From Actinomycetota bacterium (GTDB taxonomy: Bacteria > Actinomycetota > Actinomycetes > S36-B12): a stretch of 64,000 nt of DNA. Below are positions 2,947-40,597 of this stretch, piece after piece. The notes beneath the pieces are model-generated. The model was not told the DNA's origin. It saw only the letters and a program-made list of their open reading frames with translations, and did not search any database. The first letter of the stretch is position 1. Each line of letters opens with the position of its first letter. Location of the stretch: the NCBI GenBank assembly GCA_947449035.1, contig CANFQC010000008.1:4617-68616 (forward strand). The letters run 5' to 3'. Made by a program: the position numbers and the translations under genes.

Positions 2947-3639
2947 GTGAACATCGGACGTCAGCAGACTCAGGCCGTGCGGTCCGATGTAGAAGAGCGT
3001 CTTCGTCGGCTGGCTGCAGGCTGGACTCCAACTCCGGCGACCCCACTCGACCTGCAGCCCCCACGTGAGCCAGTCCCTCCGCTGAGCACCGGCCACTGGA
3101 GTCGTCGATCCTGGCGGGCCTTCGTTCTGCTGCTCACTGCGGTGGCACTCGTCGCTGGCTGGCTGTGGTGGCAGGGACAACCACGTGGTGTGACGGCCAT
3201 CCCGGGCGCCGTGGCAACTGGTGCCACAGCAGCAGCGCCGTCCGGCGAGGTAACCGTGCACGTGGCCGGTGCCGTCAGGCATCCCGGGCTGGTCCGACTC
3301 GTGGCAGGTGCACGGGTGGCTGATGCGATCGAGAAGGCCGGAGGAGCGAAGTCACCGCGGTTTCTCGACAGTGTGAACCTGGCACGAGTTCTCGTCGATG
3401 GTGAGCAGATCGTTCTTGGTGCAAAAGCCAGTGGCTCGACCACGAGCGGCAAGCTCAGCCTCGGCGCGGCAACCGCGGCCGAACTGGAACAACTACCCGG
3501 GGTTGGCCCTGTGCTCGCCCAGCGCATCGTGTCGTGGCGCGCTGACCACGGTCCATTTCACGCAGTCGACGATCTCAATGACGTGTCAGGGGTGGGTGAC
3601 TCGCTCATGGATCAGCTTCGCCCGTTGGTCATTCCCTGA
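2947..3639 (+). CDS. comEA: competence DNA receptor ComEA
   Basis: TM helix, SLBB domain (VHVAGAVRHPG...RVADAI...NLARVLVDGEQI) and HhH motif (LPGVGPVLAQRI). Confidence 0.93.
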   Translation: MNIGRQQTQAVRSDVEERLRRLAAGWTPTPATPLDLQPPREPVPPLSTGHWSRRSWRAFVLLLTAVALVAGWLWWQGQPRGVTAIPGAVATGATAAAPSGEVTVHVAGAVRHPGLVRLVAGARVADAIEKAGGAKSPRFLDSVNLARVLVDGEQIVLGAKASGSTTSGKLSLGAATAAELEQLPGVGPVLAQRIVSWRADHGPFHAVDDLNDVSGVGDSLMDQLRPLVIP

Positions 3640-5975
3640 TGGACGCCCGCCTGCTCGCGCCGGCCGGCGCGGCGTGGGCTTCGGCGGCTGCTGTGCTGTA
3701 TCTCTGCTCCACTGCGCCGCAATTCGTCCTCATTGTTGTGCTGCTCTCCGTCCTTATCGCGGTGGTGGCCATCGCCACGCGAGGCCGAGGCGCTCTCCGT
3801 GCCATCGCTCTCGCGTGCGCTTTCGGTGCACTCCTCGCGGCAATTCACGTTCAGGCTCGGCACAGCGGTTCACTCGAGCATTGGGACAACACTCATGCAC
3901 TCGTCGATGTGCATGCGGTTGTTACCGGTGATCCCGTACATCGCACGTCTGCGACTACACCCGTCTGGTTGCCTGCGAATTCGACTAGCGTGTCAGTGCG
4001 CGTCACGGCCATCACCGACAATGACTCGTCGATAAGCCTCAGCGCACCGATGGTGCTGCAATTGAGTGAGGGTCAAGGCGTGCCGCCGGTCGGTTCAACA
4101 ATCGTCGTGCGCATCAGGCTCGCACCCGCGCCCTGGAATCGCGATCTTGCGGCCTATGCGCGTCAATCGGGGGCACTGACTGTTGTAGGCGAACCAGGCC
4201 CCGTGAACCGCGTGGCGAATGCCATGCGTGCGGGTTTGCGTCAGTCAACCCGAGGGCTCAGTCCCGATGTCGGCTCACTCGTTACTGGCCTCGCGGTCGG
4301 CGATGTGTCGCAGCAACCGCCGGAACTCGATGCCGCAATGCGCGCATCGGGGCTCACTCACCTCACCGCGGTATCGGGCGGAAACGTGGCCATTGTGATC
4401 GCAGCGGTGCTGCTCGCCACATCGCGATTTCGGATCCGTCGACGATCTCGAGTGATCATTGCCATGGGTGCCCTCGTCTTCTTCGTGATCTTGGTGCGAC
4501 CGCAGCCGAGTGTGATCCGTGCGGCGGTGATGTGCGCACTCGTGATCCTGGGAATGCTCACCGGTGGCAGGCGAGCAGGGCCGGCCGTGCTGTGTGCATC
4601 GGTGCTCATTCTCATCGGGCTTGAGCCTGGGCTCGCAGTCTCCTGGGGCTTTGCTCTCTCCGTGGCGGCTACTGCGGGATTGATCATCGTCTCGCCGCGC
4701 ATACAACGCATCCTCGAGCGCTCACGCTTCAGCCGTCGATGGCCGCCTGCTCTGCGTGAGGCCTTAGCTATTGCGGCTGCGGCGCAGATCGCCACTTTGC
4801 CGATCCTCGTTGCGATGGGTGCCGGACTAGGCGTGCTGTCGATCCCGGCGAACCTGCTCGCGATGCCTGCGGTAGCTCCGGTCACGATCCTCGGCCTGTT
4901 GGCCGCGCTGGTGGCCAATGTTGCAATGCCGGTCGCCACCGTGCTCAGTCACCTCGCTGCGCCATTCGCCTGGTGGATCGCCCATGTCGCAATCACGCTC
5001 AGCAGTCTGCCCATCGCGCATCTGGGTTGGCCCGCGGGTTTCGGCGGAGTTCTGCTTCTTGCCGCAGTGGCTGCCTCGCTCTGGTGCATTCGGCGCTGGT
5101 TGCGTCATCGCTGGCCGCATGGAGTCCCGTCAGAGGTCTCGCTTACGGCCCTCGCGATGTGCTGCGTGCTGATCGCGGTGCTCATTGTCGCTCCGCCGAG
5201 CAGGCGAGGCTGGCCCCCGGCGAATTGGAAGCTCGTGATGTGCGATGTCGGCCAAGGCGATGCCATAGTCCTGCATGACTCGCATGACGACGTAGTCGTC
5301 GTGGATGCAGGGCCTGACCCCGAGCTCATTGATTCGTGTCTTGCTGATCTGTCTATCTCGCGTATCGACACGGTGCTGCTCACTCACTTTCATGCCGATC
5401 ACGTCAATGGCCTGCCAGGCGTTCTGCGTGGGCGCAGTGTGCGGCAGGTCCTGGTGACCTCGATTGAGGAACCGCCGCAACAGGCGGAATTCGTGCAACG
5501 CACCCTCGCCGATGCTGGCCTTGCTGCCACGGTGGCGCATGTCGATGACCGGGGGAGTGTGGGAGCAATCAGCTGGCGGGTGCTGTGGCCGCGTCGACGT
5601 ATTGACTCTGGCTCAGTTCCGAATAACGCGAGCGTGGTGATTCTCGCTGTCGTCGACGGCGTGAGCATGCTCCTGACGGGCGATGTAGAACCCGAAGCTC
5701 AGGCGGCGATCATCGTTGCTGAAGCGGGTCTCCACGTTGACGTTATGAAGGTGCCGCATCACGGCTCGCGGTATCAAGACCCTCGGCTGCCCGCCTGGAG
5801 TCACGCCCGCGTAGCCCTGATCAGTGTGGGCGAAGGGAACACCTACGGCCATCCAGCTCCCGAGACCGTAAGCGCGTGGCAGGAGTCCGGAGCTCTGGTG
5901 GCCCGTACTGACACCGGCGGTGACCTCGCCGTGGTCGGAGGCACATCCGTGGGACTGGTCTCCCGGGCGGGGTGA
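3639..5975 (+). CDS. comEC: DNA uptake channel ComEC/Rec2
   Basis: HLTAVSGGN competence domain; MBL domain DVGQGDA, THFHADH, KVPHHGS, NTYGHP. Confidence 0.95.
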   Translation: MDARLLAPAGAAWASAAAVLYLCSTAPQFVLIVVLLSVLIAVVAIATRGRGALRAIALACAFGALLAAIHVQARHSGSLEHWDNTHALVDVHAVVTGDPVHRTSATTPVWLPANSTSVSVRVTAITDNDSSISLSAPMVLQLSEGQGVPPVGSTIVVRIRLAPAPWNRDLAAYARQSGALTVVGEPGPVNRVANAMRAGLRQSTRGLSPDVGSLVTGLAVGDVSQQPPELDAAMRASGLTHLTAVSGGNVAIVIAAVLLATSRFRIRRRSRVIIAMGALVFFVILVRPQPSVIRAAVMCALVILGMLTGGRRAGPAVLCASVLILIGLEPGLAVSWGFALSVAATAGLIIVSPRIQRILERSRFSRRWPPALREALAIAAAAQIATLPILVAMGAGLGVLSIPANLLAMPAVAPVTILGLLAALVANVAMPVATVLSHLAAPFAWWIAHVAITLSSLPIAHLGWPAGFGGVLLLAAVAASLWCIRRWLRHRWPHGVPSEVSLTALAMCCVLIAVLIVAPPSRRGWPPANWKLVMCDVGQGDAIVLHDSHDDVVVVDAGPDPELIDSCLADLSISRIDTVLLTHFHADHVNGLPGVLRGRSVRQVLVTSIEEPPQQAEFVQRTLADAGLAATVAHVDDRGSVGAISWRVLWPRRRIDSGSVPNNASVVILAVVDGVSMLLTGDVEPEAQAAIIVAEAGLHVDVMKVPHHGSRYQDPRLPAWSHARVALISVGEGNTYGHPAPETVSAWQESGALVARTDTGGDLAVVGGTSVGLVSRAG

Positions 5976-37051: not shown

Positions 37052-37351
37052 CTATTCAGGTGTGCTTCCGTCTCATAGTCGAGAGGTTGACGTCGGTTCA
37101 TCAGTCACATGATCTCGTGCTGGCCGATCCTTGCAGGCATATTCGGAGCGGACTTCCTTGCCACACATGACAGTCTGCGCCTGCCTGGCGCCACATCGCC
37201 AAAGAGAAGGCGTGGCCTTTGGTGTCCAAGCTTTGGAGTCGCTTTCGACTCAAAGGCTTGAAGCAGCGTGACAGGAAAGTACAGACTCCGCATGCAGGCG
37301 CATTAGACTCGTCAAAAAGCAATTGCAGTTGAGTTGACCCAGGGGGCCCGA

Positions 37352-38584
37352 ATGCGCCGAGATCAGTTCATCGCGCGAAAGGTCGTCACTAGCGCGCTGC
37401 TTGTTTTGGCTTCGGTGCTGGGTGTAAGCGCGCTCGCGCCCCAGGCGATGGCCGTGACCACGCAGGCCGTTCTAGCGCCCAACACTGCCAATCAGGTCGT
37501 CACCTTGCCCGCGGTGACCGGATTCGCGTCTTCGGATGTTCTCCTAGTCGGAGTCTCGCTCAATGGCGCGCCTGTCGGAACGTCATTGAGTTTCACATCA
37601 ACCACCGGACTCACTCCGGCATACGGATACTCATTCACTGCCGGCATGCAGGAGATCAGTTTCGTCGGAACACAGGCGAGCGTGAATGCAACGCTGGCCT
37701 CGGCGCTGATCTCCACCGGCGTGGCCGAGGGCGCTTTCACGATCCACGTCGGTGCCGTCCTGAACTCTCCGAATGTCTACTACCTGCCCTCGAGCGGCAG
37801 CTTCTACGAATTCGCCTCCGGAGACGTCTCGTGGACATCCGCACGAGCGAGCGCAGCGACTGCCGTGTTCTGGGGCTCGACCGGTCATCTTTCGAACATC
37901 ACCAGCTCCCACGAGAACGATTTCATCAGCTGTCATGTCAATGCCCAGAACGTCTGGATCGGCGCGAGCGACTCGGCTCAGGAGGGAACCTGGATCTGGG
38001 TCGATGGCGCGGAATCAGGCACACAGTTCTGGCAAGGCGACTCGTCCGGCAGTACGACGCAGCCATGGAATTTCGCATCATGGGCAATCGGTCAGCCGAG
38101 CACAGATAACGCGGGGAACGACTACGGCGTCACGAATTGGCGCGGCACCAACGGGTTCTGGAATGCCGTGCCTAACCGACCTGATCGCACGATGAACGGA
38201 TACCTCGTTGAGTTCGCCGGGCCATTCACTGGCGTGTTCACGGATCAGCTGACTGTTGCTGTCGGCGGGGGTGACTACGCAATCTCGGATGTTGCGCCGC
38301 CGAACACCGCATGCGATTCGGGCGCGATCACTCCCGATGCCGTTGTAGTCACCCCGAGCACGGGATGGTTGCAGTCCTATGCAAGGACTAAGGGCGCTGA
38401 ATGCGCGCGGAGTTGGAGTCCCTCGTGGGCGGTATGGGCTGTGCCCGTGAGCGGCGGGTCGGTATGTAATCGGGGCGTGTACTGGAGCGGTACTCAATGG
38501 ATGCAAAATCCTGACCTGGGCTGGGGAAACTTCGATTCTGCGCTTTCTGGTCCGTGGGATGGTCTCTCCGCGCCACCTGGCTGA
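37352..38584 (+). CDS. secreted C-type lectin-domain protein with Trp/Cys C-terminal module
   Basis: signal peptide (AMA), W..A..GHL.NITS..EN.F..WIG.SD..EG.W.W CTLD pattern. Confidence 0.8.
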   Translation: MRRDQFIARKVVTSALLVLASVLGVSALAPQAMAVTTQAVLAPNTANQVVTLPAVTGFASSDVLLVGVSLNGAPVGTSLSFTSTTGLTPAYGYSFTAGMQEISFVGTQASVNATLASALISTGVAEGAFTIHVGAVLNSPNVYYLPSSGSFYEFASGDVSWTSARASAATAVFWGSTGHLSNITSSHENDFISCHVNAQNVWIGASDSAQEGTWIWVDGAESGTQFWQGDSSGSTTQPWNFASWAIGQPSTDNAGNDYGVTNWRGTNGFWNAVPNRPDRTMNGYLVEFAGPFTGVFTDQLTVAVGGGDYAISDVAPPNTACDSGAITPDAVVVTPSTGWLQSYARTKGAECARSWSPSWAVWAVPVSGGSVCNRGVYWSGTQWMQNPDLGWGNFDSALSGPWDGLSAPPG

Positions 38585-38664
38585 CGTCGCACGACGACAA
38601 ATATTTCTGACGGGGGAGCTACTGCGGCCTGTCCATCGGAAAGTGGAAACCAGCTCTTGGCCGT

Positions 38665-39327
38665 TCAGCTCCCGTAGGCGGGCAGGAACTTGTTGCACAC
38701 GTACCCGCCCTTGCCGCCGTTAGGCCAGGTGTCCCAGGAGTCGGTGTAGCCATCCGGGCAGGTAGCGGTGGCTGATGCCCGGCCGATGGCCTGTTGCCAC
38801 ATCGGGATGGCTGCCGTTGTTTCTTCTGGCAACGTTACTGGGACCAGAACGTCATTGGCGGAGTCCCATACCCACACAGTCGCGCCTGATAGCGACGAGT
38901 TGGTAGTCGTGTATCCGCTGCCCCAGGACACCGTAATGACATCACCGGAATGAGCGGAAGTACTGGCGTCCACAAATAGGAAGGCGCCGTCCCCTTCGGT
39001 GTCGTCGCCCGAGAACGCCCTGCTTTGGCAGGACCTAATCGTTTGCGGGACCAAGTTATAGCTCAAGGTAATTCCGTAATCGACGCAGTGACTTGGGTCA
39101 TTGCCAGTCCAGGTGTTTGACGTGAAAAACGCGGTTGGCAGGTCAATCTCGGCCCAGTTCGCATCACCAGTGAGTGTGGTGGACGCACTTCCCGAAACCG
39201 CCACTCCTGATGCAAATGACGCGAACTGCGCTGTCTCATTTGCCGCGAAGGCGACCGGAGCTAAACCCACGCCGCGCGAAGATGCCTGTTCTAGAGGCGA
39301 TCGTGAGGTACTTTCCCATCGTGTCAT
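38665..39327 (-). CDS. putative secreted protein with Trp/Cys C-terminal module; signal peptide appears frameshifted
   Basis: GVGLAPVAFA cleavage region; C-terminus WQQAIGR..C..SWDTWPNGGKGGYVCNK. Confidence 0.65.
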   Translation of the reverse strand: MTRWESTSRSPLEQASSRGVGLAPVAFAANETAQFASFASGVAVSGSASTTLTGDANWAEIDLPTAFFTSNTWTGNDPSHCVDYGITLSYNLVPQTIRSCQSRAFSGDDTEGDGAFLFVDASTSAHSGDVITVSWGSGYTTTNSSLSGATVWVWDSANDVLVPVTLPEETTAAIPMWQQAIGRASATATCPDGYTDSWDTWPNGGKGGYVCNKFLPAYGS

Positions 39328-39391
39328 TCCTCCCTTTGTGGGGGACTGGCCGACTGGATGTTCTTAGTGGCTGGGATGCGAGGAGTTCGTA

Positions 39392-40597
39392 ATGCGCAGG
39401 TTATTGGTAACGGTTGCCTCGATTGCTGCGCTCGTTGTTCCTGGGGTCTGGTCCAGTCCGGTTGCATTAGCGTCAGTCGGGGATGTCACCTTCACCAACA
39501 AGACCACCCTCGACGGACTCGGAAACGACCGAACGTACGGCGTGTTTGCCGCCGGTGGCACGGTATATGCCGCAACTTCCGCGGGCCTGAGTATCTCCAC
39601 CGATGGCGGGGCGTCGTTCACCAACAAGACCACGGGCAGTGGACTTGGCGACAACCAGGTAAACGGCGTTTATGTCGCCGGAGGCACGATCTATGTCGCC
39701 ACCGGCGGGGGTCTGAGTATTTCCACGGATGGCGGCGCCTCCTTCATCAACAAGACCACCACTAGCGGACTCGCCGACAATTACGTGTATTGCGTTTATG
39801 CCTCCGGTGACACGATCTACGCAGGCACATCCTCGGGCTTGAGTATCTCCACGGATGGCGGGACGTCATTTACGACCAAGACCGCCATCGCCAATGGACT
39901 TGGCGATGACTATGTGTACGGCGTTTTTGCCGCAGGTGGCGTGATTTACGCTGCTACCAACGCGGGCTTGAGTATCTCGGCAGATGGCGGCACGTCGTTC
40001 ACCAACAAGACCACCATCAGTGGACTCGGTGACAACGTCGTGAACGGCGTTTTTGCCGGGGGTGGCGTGATTTACGCCGCCACCTTCGCAGGCTTGAGTA
40101 TCTCCACGGATGGCGCGGCATCCTTCATCAACAAGCCCGTCGGGAGCGGATTCGGGAACGACAGTGCGTACAGCGTGTACGCCTCTGGCGCCACTGTCTA
40201 CGTCGGTACCGCCTCAGGCTTGAGTATTTCCACAGATAGCGGGACTTCCTTTACCAACTACACGACCACGAGCGGACTCGGAAATGACACCGTGCCGGGC
40301 GTGTATGCGGACGACAGCACGATCTACGCCGCTACCGCCGGAGGGTTGGGTATCTCCCATTCCTTCGCGGCTGTTGGGAGCGATGTGCCAGTCGCACCAA
40401 TGCAGGCATACGGGCGAGGAGCCGACGGAAAATGCGACAGCAATGCACCTTCGTGGGTGAACTGGTCCGGGGTTGCTGACAAGCAATACGCGGCTTGGGT
40501 TACGAGCTGGCAGTGGTGGCCGAATAACGGAACTGGCGGATATGTATGTGTACGCCAGCCGTACTACACCACGAGCAACGCTTGGGCCGTTCAGTAA
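39392..40597 (+). CDS. secreted seven-repeat beta-propeller protein with Trp/Cys C-terminal module
   Basis: signal peptide (ALA); seven ~42-aa repeats FTNKTTxxGLGxxxVxGV..TIYAAT..GLSISTDGG. Confidence 0.85.
   Translation: MRRLLVTVASIAALVVPGVWSSPVALASVGDVTFTNKTTLDGLGNDRTYGVFAAGGTVYAATSAGLSISTDGGASFTNKTTGSGLGDNQVNGVYVAGGTIYVATGGGLSISTDGGASFINKTTTSGLADNYVYCVYASGDTIYAGTSSGLSISTDGGTSFTTKTAIANGLGDDYVYGVFAAGGVIYAATNAGLSISADGGTSFTNKTTISGLGDNVVNGVFAGGGVIYAATFAGLSISTDGAASFINKPVGSGFGNDSAYSVYASGATVYVGTASGLSISTDSGTSFTNYTTTSGLGNDTVPGVYADDSTIYAATAGGLGISHSFAAVGSDVPVAPMQAYGRGADGKCDSNAPSWVNWSGVADKQYAAWVTSWQWWPNNGTGGYVCVRQPYYTTSNAWAVQ
39487..40357 (+). repeat. intragenic tandem repeats (~126 nt x 7)
   Basis: recurring TGAGTATCTCCACGGATGGCG and TTCACCAACAAGACCAC. 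Confidence 0.85.

Follow-up and report, generated by a model that had tools for sequence, protein, structure and literature searches.

The DNA analysed here (the window, i.e. the whole stretch of 64,000 nucleotides of contig CANFQC010000008.1 from an Actinomycetota bacterium) contains three adjacent genes, A (+), B (-) and C (+), whose products end in a Trp-rich tail bearing two cysteines. This locus raises the question of what such a tail does on three proteins that differ over the rest of their length: does it send them to a dedicated processing machine, does it attach them to the cell surface, or does it serve another purpose? We found that the three tails most likely are copies of a domain that had not been annotated before, which folds by itself outside the cytoplasm into a small beta structure and is carried by many different exported proteins. 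The family is real, works in any position of a protein, is restricted to one lineage among the sampled genomes and has no match among known families. It represents a new exported domain of this lineage, for which a role in binding or anchoring seems probable.

The tails and their paralogues

The window lies on contig C8 of a metagenome-assembled genome (MAG), designated G000, of 2.36 Mb in 87 contigs, 97.7% complete; the GC content is about 60%. The three genes, given as open reading frames (ORFs), and their copies of the module are as follows, with the scores of the hidden Markov model (HMM) described below and the mean predicted local distance difference test (pLDDT) of the structural models.

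37334-38584 (+): gene A, ORF of 416 aa with signal peptide, C-type-lectin-like passenger, module and short C-terminal extension
38357-38512 (+): module copy of A, short form, residues 342-393; HMM E-value 7.7e-22; core quoted previously at 38366-38473
38665-39327 (-): gene B, ORF of 220 aa with passenger, then C-terminal module
38668-38808 (-): module copy of B, short form, residues 174-220, reaching the stop codon; HMM E-value 1.4e-23; AlphaFold2 pLDDT 91.7
39392-40597 (+): gene C, ORF of 401 aa with signal peptide, about eight propeller-like repeats of ~40 aa and long-form module
40388-40594 (+): module copy of C, long form, residues 333-401; HMM E-value 6.3e-20; AlphaFold2 pLDDT 89.6

A preliminary description of this DNA, made from the letters alone, had quoted one peptide for each tail. 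These peptides translate letter for letter at 38366-38473 (+), 38689-38799 (-) and 40400-40555 (+), close to the C-termini encoded by A, B and C; the products of A and C run 23 and 14 residues past the quoted motif. Once aligned, the tails display an invariant Q, R, two Cys, SW, W, GG and V. With these three sequences as its only input, an HMM was built and searched against the 34,753 six-frame ORFs (>=40 aa) of the genome. It matched 29 ORFs holding 30 module copies (E-values from 7.9e-26 to 6.1e-4, the next one being 0.62), so that the many paralogues expected of such a module do exist. The same ORFs in reversed orientation gave no match, either with this HMM or with the one built from the 30 copies.

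Across 79 aligned modules, taken from this genome and related ones, both Cys, one Trp and GG were invariant, which agrees with the two-Cys module first proposed, and S, a second W and N were conserved at 90% or more. The family signature, Q-x-[YIV]-[GA]-R ... C ... SW-x-x-W-[PAVM]-N-x-x-x-GG-x-[VT]-C-x-[RK], is present in all three window tails, and its Trp cluster reads SWxxW[PA]NxGxGG. Two forms were distinguished: a short form of ~45 residues with a Cys spacing of 21 residues, to which A and B belong, and a long form of ~65 residues (up to 70) with a Cys spacing of 32-38 residues, to which C belongs. In the long form, residues are inserted after the first Cys, and an additional strand at the C-terminus closes with a conserved Trp; in C, the insertion counts ~17 residues and this strand is present. 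The Pro-containing linker previously described ahead of each tail occurs in the three window proteins and corresponds to a modest trend over the family, 25/30 modules having one Pro or more within the 20 residues that precede them (11% Pro vs 7% across the six-frame ORFs).

The passengers are unrelated, as had been anticipated: A carries a Lectin_C domain, B no Pfam family and C a weakly recognised propeller, and passengers could be aligned in just 22 of the 325 paralogue pairs. In all 22 alignable pairs the module was more conserved than the passenger (e.g. 89% vs 46% between B and its C29 paralogue).

Structure prediction, a step advised in the preliminary description, returned a confident small beta fold with AlphaFold2 for the short form (mean pLDDT 91.7) as well as for the long form (mean pLDDT 89.6). 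The predicted short form is a small antiparallel sheet, with strands at residues 7-14, 26-30 and 39-47; PNGG forms a short helical turn.

Searches against known families support the early view that the module belongs to no named one. The 30 modules compared with Pfam-A at E<=10 retrieved only cEGF (two members, best E 0.096) and Zn_Ribbon_Prim (one member, E 0.078), and NCBIfam release 20 at the same threshold retrieved no family, nothing being found on the tails of A, B and C; the family profile run against PDB sequences reached a best E of 0.5, on unrelated proteins. With Foldseek, neither model matched any of 350,542 PDB chains at E<=0.001 (TM by query reaching 0.28 and 0.33 at best), at a low power for 50-75 residues that could let a distant relation escape. 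In the ESM Atlas there was no usable match, the structure rows consisting of unrelated families (TM 0.39-0.56 over ~40 residues). Full-text keyword searches of the literature did not return a description of the domain, a weak negative given that keywords suit an unnamed domain poorly. In public protein collections the family comes from metagenome sources only, and such names as are given (1/18 and 5/38 named) all read 'hypothetical protein'. Being uncovered by Pfam and NCBIfam, the domain merits a family entry; its confidently predicted small fold also lacks a PDB counterpart by Foldseek. A possible likeness to the thrombospondin-type WxxW repeat and to the WW domain was considered and dropped because the modules have no Pfam match.

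Export, position in the protein and lineage

The tail had been expected to be always C-terminal, which proved incorrect. Within the genome, the module is C-terminal in 24/29 ORFs, with 0-30 residues after it and a tandem arrangement in one case, and N-terminal in 5/29, where it starts a few residues past the predicted signal-peptide cleavage site (...ASA/DSIQYQSYQR...) and is followed by 103-194 residues. Among 163 metagenomic proteins it is C-terminal in 157, N-terminal in five and internal in one, and 17 of these proteins contain two copies. The top-scoring metagenomic group (P0001-P0007) combines a lipoprotein-type leader (e.g. ...LAGC) with two modules.

Signal-peptide-like N-termini, called with a hydrophobicity window and by eye, without SignalP, were found in 26 of the 29 proteins of the genome. 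The other three ORFs are one cut at a contig end, one 82-aa fragment without a leader and gene B; the earlier expectation of a signal peptide on every module protein holds for most. For the three window proteins, it is right for A and C and wrong for B, in which the hydrophobic core is lost. Of 147 assessable metagenomic proteins, 120 passed the same heuristic, nine of them with a lipobox; 16 probable N-truncated fragments had been set aside, and several of the 27 proteins that did not pass resemble truncated gene calls. It was also correctly noted at the outset that transmembrane tail, LPXTG motif and lipobox are lacking: A, B and C have no hydrophobic C-terminus, no LPXTG and no Cys in their first 80 residues.

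The passengers were surveyed with Pfam, 25 families being listed of the 30 found in the 29 proteins of the genome and 25 of the 31 found in 150 metagenomic representatives. In the genome, Lcl_C (PF07603) occurs in four proteins, which we take to be N-terminal-module proteins, and YncE, LVIVD and lactonase-type propellers in two each, along with pentapeptide, GLUG, Lectin_C and others. In the metagenomic set, each family has at most three members, i.e. propellers, pentapeptide, TIG, fn3, FG-GAP, cadherin-like and PMP repeats, one trypsin and one ubiquitin-family protein. No glycoside hydrolase, peptidoglycan hydrolase or endolysin appears among the families listed for these 179 module proteins. 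The ubiquitin-family member matches PF00240 (E 4.4e-31) and Rad60-SLD, which is odd for a bacterial exported protein; it may come from a chimeric or eukaryotic contig.

With regard to distribution, the counts are those of samples, and absence means that the module was not found in the genomes searched. In a scan of 41 genomes, it was present in 20/24 of the family to which the window belongs vs 0/16 representing nine further families of the same order; scoring extended to every first-look candidate in 39 of these genomes, and to 150 of 170 (G032) and 150 of 185 (G033) in the others. The number of copies per genome amounts to 30 in G000 and G003 and 23 in G005. A larger sample gave 56/88 genomes of the family vs 0/212 in the rest of the order, and a phylum-wide sample 0/400, 20 or 15 first-look candidates per genome being scored in the order and phylum scans, where weak copies could escape. 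The restriction to one lineage that was predicted for such a module is thus what the sampled genomes display. When 1.84 billion cluster representatives were searched with a profile, 1390 matched at E<=1e-3, a number that falls to 713 at E<=1e-10.

According to their record titles, 41 matching loci come from freshwater MAGs named uncultured actinobacterium, Candidatus Nanopelagicales bacterium, Actinomycetales bacterium or Actinomycetes bacterium. A few labels called for a check. Locus L071 is titled 'uncultured Rubrivirga sp.' and its neighbouring genes are 70-77% identical to contigs C20 and C5 of our MAG; L072 and L052, titled 'uncultured bacterium', have neighbours mostly 45-89% identical to its contigs C56 and C21. 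These identities place the three loci in the same lineage, and Rubrivirga seems to be a mislabel. The records named Bifidobacterium breve or Bifidobacteriaceae (L062, L064, L074 and L076) were left out of this check.

In lakes, freshwater Actinomycetota make up a major part of the bacterioplankton; most of them have not been cultured, and there is practically no annotation of their surface proteins. A single HMM flags ~30 exported proteins per genome in the genus and ~1400 metagenome protein clusters, and offers a handle on the surface proteome that faces phages, grazers and particles.

Role of the module

The module is probably a binding or anchoring domain and not a cleaved sorting tag. Within this frame, we give an even chance to the narrower proposal that it is a non-covalent anchor to a ligand of the cell's own envelope, displaying a variable passenger. 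The proteins would be exported by Sec via an ordinary signal peptide and the module would fold under oxidation beyond the membrane; it would then bind, non-covalently, one common ligand of the envelope (wall glycopolymer, peptidoglycan or surface protein), so that the variable passenger would be displayed at the cell surface. In this lineage, dozens of secreted proteins, unrelated to each other and mostly adhesin-like, are connected to the module by a short linker. The invariant Cys pair probably forms a disulfide after export, which is plausible given that the genome encodes a DsbA-like Thioredoxin_4 protein. The high conservation of the module on unrelated, largely adhesin-like passengers suggests one common partner, and a ligand of the own envelope is favoured in view of the lectin-like nature of several passengers and of the two copies present on membrane-tethered lipoproteins. 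Moreover, the genome encodes one sortase, LPXTG-like tails are weak and few at most, and SLH (PF00395) was not found in the module proteins or in the whole genome (a control search was positive in 4/14 reference genomes); an extra display system would fit such a repertoire. The two-module lipoproteins and this scarcity of sortase, LPXTG and SLH display point weakly to an own-envelope ligand.

Several observations weigh against such an anchor. Classical wall-binding domains often sit on peptidoglycan hydrolases, as described in PMC5817068, unlike the module, for which none is among the passenger families listed. Many wall-binding modules act as repeats, but most of the proteins studied here have a single small copy, and a second anchor would be superfluous for lipoproteins. 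In the phage-associated loci L089, L091 and L092 (see below), the module lies ~4 residues past a 22-residue hydrophobic segment and, if this segment is uncleaved, would be very near the membrane. In addition, the surroundings of the module genes at 20 loci did not reveal a co-occurring gene, and VKOR was not found in the genome. Models of wall-binding domains (LysM, SH3b/GW, PGB1, CWB1, CWB2 and ChW) did not match any of the 30 modules in the Pfam-A search at E<=10.

The module is nearest in logic to the WXL domain of Lactobacillales and also resembles ChW and small carbohydrate-binding modules (CBMs), without being a member of any of them, since none of the family models tested matched it. 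WXL is presented in PMC5817068 as a lineage-restricted, Trp-bearing C-terminal domain with clustered genes and non-covalent wall binding. In Lactobacillales and Bacillales, WXL (PF13731) shares with the module a C-terminal Trp-motif domain on signal-peptide proteins, whose genes lie side by side; in the account given there it differs by its length (~120-190 residues) and by having no conserved Cys pair, the module having 45-70 residues, two invariant Cys and belonging to another phylum (PMC5817068). No Pfam match to WXL was obtained (proteins at E<=1, modules at E<=10), and surface binding, shown for WXL, is conjectural for the module. ChW (PF07538) is likewise a domain of ~50 residues with a conserved Trp, presumed in the same source to act in surface anchoring or protein-protein interaction with an unidentified ligand; it occurs there in 1-12 copies, mainly on endolysins (PMC5817068), whereas the module is usually single and has no endolysin among the listed families.

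Among the other explanations, that of a C-terminal sorting signal processed by a dedicated machine, put forward in the preliminary description, draws on the likeness to LPXTG/sortase, PEP-CTERM/exosortase and type IX secretion system (T9SS) C-terminal domains, all of which also combine a signal peptide, a variable passenger and a conserved tail (C-terminal in 24/29 and 157/163 proteins here) and are confined to lineages, as is the module among the sampled genomes. It differs from them in having no such motif, transmembrane helix or basic tail and in occurring also N-terminally after the signal peptide (5/29), in tandem and alone, as module-only ORFs; the 0-30 residues past it vary and form no hydrophobic or charged tail. 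A sorting enzyme is not apparent either, as no gene family was found beside more than 3/20 module loci and no Pfam or NCBIfam sorting model matched. Regarding each system, the LPXTG signal (PF00746) was not recognised in A, B and C, whose ends (...SAPPG, ...PAYGS and ...AWAVQ) are non-hydrophobic, without LPXTG or Pfam match; signals of the PEP-CTERM/GlyGly-CTERM type were not found in them by NCBIfam models, nor was a transmembrane tail; and the T9SS C-terminal domain gave no Pfam or NCBIfam match and sits ill with an N-terminal module in 5/29 proteins. Copies at either end, in tandem, in lipoproteins or standing alone, together with the lack of a hydrophobic tail, the compact predicted fold and the lack of a recurrent enzyme, argue for an autonomous domain, and we consider a sorting signal highly improbable. 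Internal or cytoplasmic occurrence, which had been put forward as evidence against the initial proposal, was seen in part; it counts against a sorting tag and not against an anchoring or binding module.

Small CBMs, such as CBM5/12 (chitin-binding domain type 3), are beta domains of ~45-60 residues with exposed aromatics, attached at either end via a linker. The module, a small Trp/Tyr-rich beta domain with Gly/Asn turns, placed at either terminus behind Pro/Thr/Ser linkers and existing as module-only ORFs, recalls this layout, and could accordingly bind a ligand outside the producer, be it algal or particle polysaccharide, chitin or other cells, on proteins that are secreted or adhesive and not self-anchored. 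We regard this as unlikely: the families listed include no glycoside hydrolase or other polymer-degrading family apart from one trypsin, several passengers are already lectin-like binders (Lectin_C, Lcl_C), for which two outward binding ends would be less sensible, and the lipoprotein forms are held at the membrane. The likeness to CBM5/12 was tested by Pfam and fold searches only; no Pfam CBM model matched, and neither CBM5/12 nor other solved CBMs emerged from the PDB profile (best E 0.5) or from Foldseek, the latter having little power on folds of 50-75 residues. A protein-protein docking unit, bringing many proteins into one scaffold, S-layer or membrane receptor, or driving oligomerisation, is less likely still. 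Such a unit would resemble the dockerins of cellulosomal proteins, of which tens occur per genome, each a single small, mostly C-terminal module that docks to a common partner; the module is similarly found in tens of mostly single, terminal copies per genome on unrelated passengers and is conserved above them, and two-module lipoproteins could serve as adaptors and free phage modules as competitors. Dockerins are Ca-binding helical repeats, whereas the module is predicted to be beta with a Cys pair and gave no Pfam match to PF00404. No cohesin-like or other candidate partner was seen at the module loci, where any recurring neighbour family reached at most 3/20, and the genes around the two-module lipoproteins (topoisomerase IV, oxidoreductase, HAD and MmeI) are uninformative. 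The prediction of a module homodimer scored 0.04 (mark 0.42) and weighs neither way. Finally, a ligand-free stabilising or folding cap, or a protease-resistant terminus spread via duplication and domain shuffling, would suit a very small, probably disulfide-locked domain for which neither partner nor ligand was identified, but strong conservation over unrelated passengers, extending to surface-type residues (Q, R, N and W), and the tandem and stand-alone phage copies are hard to account for in this way, which makes it very unlikely.

If the non-covalent binding proposed above holds, a self-folding tag of 45 residues could be a useful tool.

Genes of the locus and phage-encoded copies

The remaining features of the three genes are the following.

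37352 (+): alternative ATG start of gene A
37334-37453 (+): signal-peptide-like N-terminus of A, with basic residues, hydrophobic core and ...APQAMA; by eye and hydrophobicity window
37880-38053 (+): C-type lectin domain of A, residues 183-240; PF00059 Lectin_C, E 1.7e-7, 32.4 bits vs cut-off 22.6
38513-38581 (+): post-module extension of A, 23 residues, Trp/Gly-rich, outside the family model
39236-39319 (-): signal-peptide remnant of B, out of frame, MGKYLTIASRTGIF..., with degraded resemblance to the lost start; three-frame translation and comparison with P0155
39392-39472 (+): signal-peptide-like N-terminus of C, MRRLLVTVASIAALVVPGVWSSPVALA; by eye

In A, 29 residues remain past the end of the HMM alignment. 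A diversity-generating retroelement acting on this lectin protein was considered and rejected, reverse transcriptase not being found in the genome.

The passenger of B gave no family in Pfam and NCBIfam scans. Gene B was compared with its homologues P0153 and P0155: its N-terminus can be aligned with the signal peptide of P0155 only from 'GVGLAPVAFA' on, and polar residues stand upstream of this point in place of the hydrophobic core. The N-terminal region (window 39236-39327) was found identical, with no indels, in contigs of four lake/freshwater runs from three studies, one of which may contain the source sample, so that the loss of the signal peptide does not result from an assembly error. 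B is probably a decaying copy and may otherwise be a relocalised one.

In C, the passenger has weak Reg_prop/PorZ propeller matches in Pfam, and NCBIfam NF045728 scored 52.5 bits, below its cut-off of 175. The repeats (39479-40381, +), about eight of ~40 residues, each contain an Asp-box-like 'S-I-S-T-D-G-G-x-S-F' motif, and the C homologue P0157 has a weak BNR match (E 6.8e-4), under the cut-off.

Module genes are often adjacent: the window has three, and two lie together on each of contigs C5, C9, C31, C37, C70 and C87. Contigs C70 (6.4 kb) and C78 (4.0 kb) share several homologous genes in a common order, module genes included, and are probably strain variants or a duplicated island. The short contigs C70, C78, C79 and C87 hold many module genes, as expected of variable, repeated regions that break assemblies. 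The leaderless 82-aa ORF mentioned above (C37:16160-16405, -) consists of a long-form module immediately downstream of another module gene and is probably a gene remnant.

Phage copies were sought in IMG/VR, where three groups were found; tblastn of two modules against GenBank phages gave no match. L084 is a genuine phage contig, with genes for primase/D5, small and large terminase and portal, and encodes between its replication and packaging genes a 79-aa ORF (3394-3633, +) made of a hydrophobic leader and the module alone; a related 80-aa ORF occurs in L085 (2925-3164, +). A decoy or an exclusion function are possibilities for such a free phage module. A second group, L089, L091 and L092 (4848-5384, +), from three metagenomes, has a gene in common, identical in L091 and L092 and one residue off and end-cut in L089; its product comprises a 22-residue hydrophobic N-terminus, the module, a Pro/Ala linker and ~90 further residues, and in L091 the gene adjoins major head, endonuclease VII and tail fibre genes. 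These copies suggest a role at the phage-host interface. It is conceivable, although doubtful, that the own-envelope anchor favoured above extends to the whole freshwater family as its general non-covalent display anchor, bound to a lineage-specific envelope polymer and largely replacing sortase/LPXTG, and that phages captured it and export copies, free or held at the membrane, to compete for, mask or exploit the ligand, e.g. for superinfection exclusion.

The third group is represented by L086 (105.8 kb, 41% GC), a candidate viral contig in which a gene (4275-5132, +) encodes an Ice_binding domain (PF11999), a long Pro/Thr linker and a C-terminal module. It hints that the module also exists in a low-GC host or its virus. 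The ice-binding gene adjoins a gene for a collagen-repeat protein.

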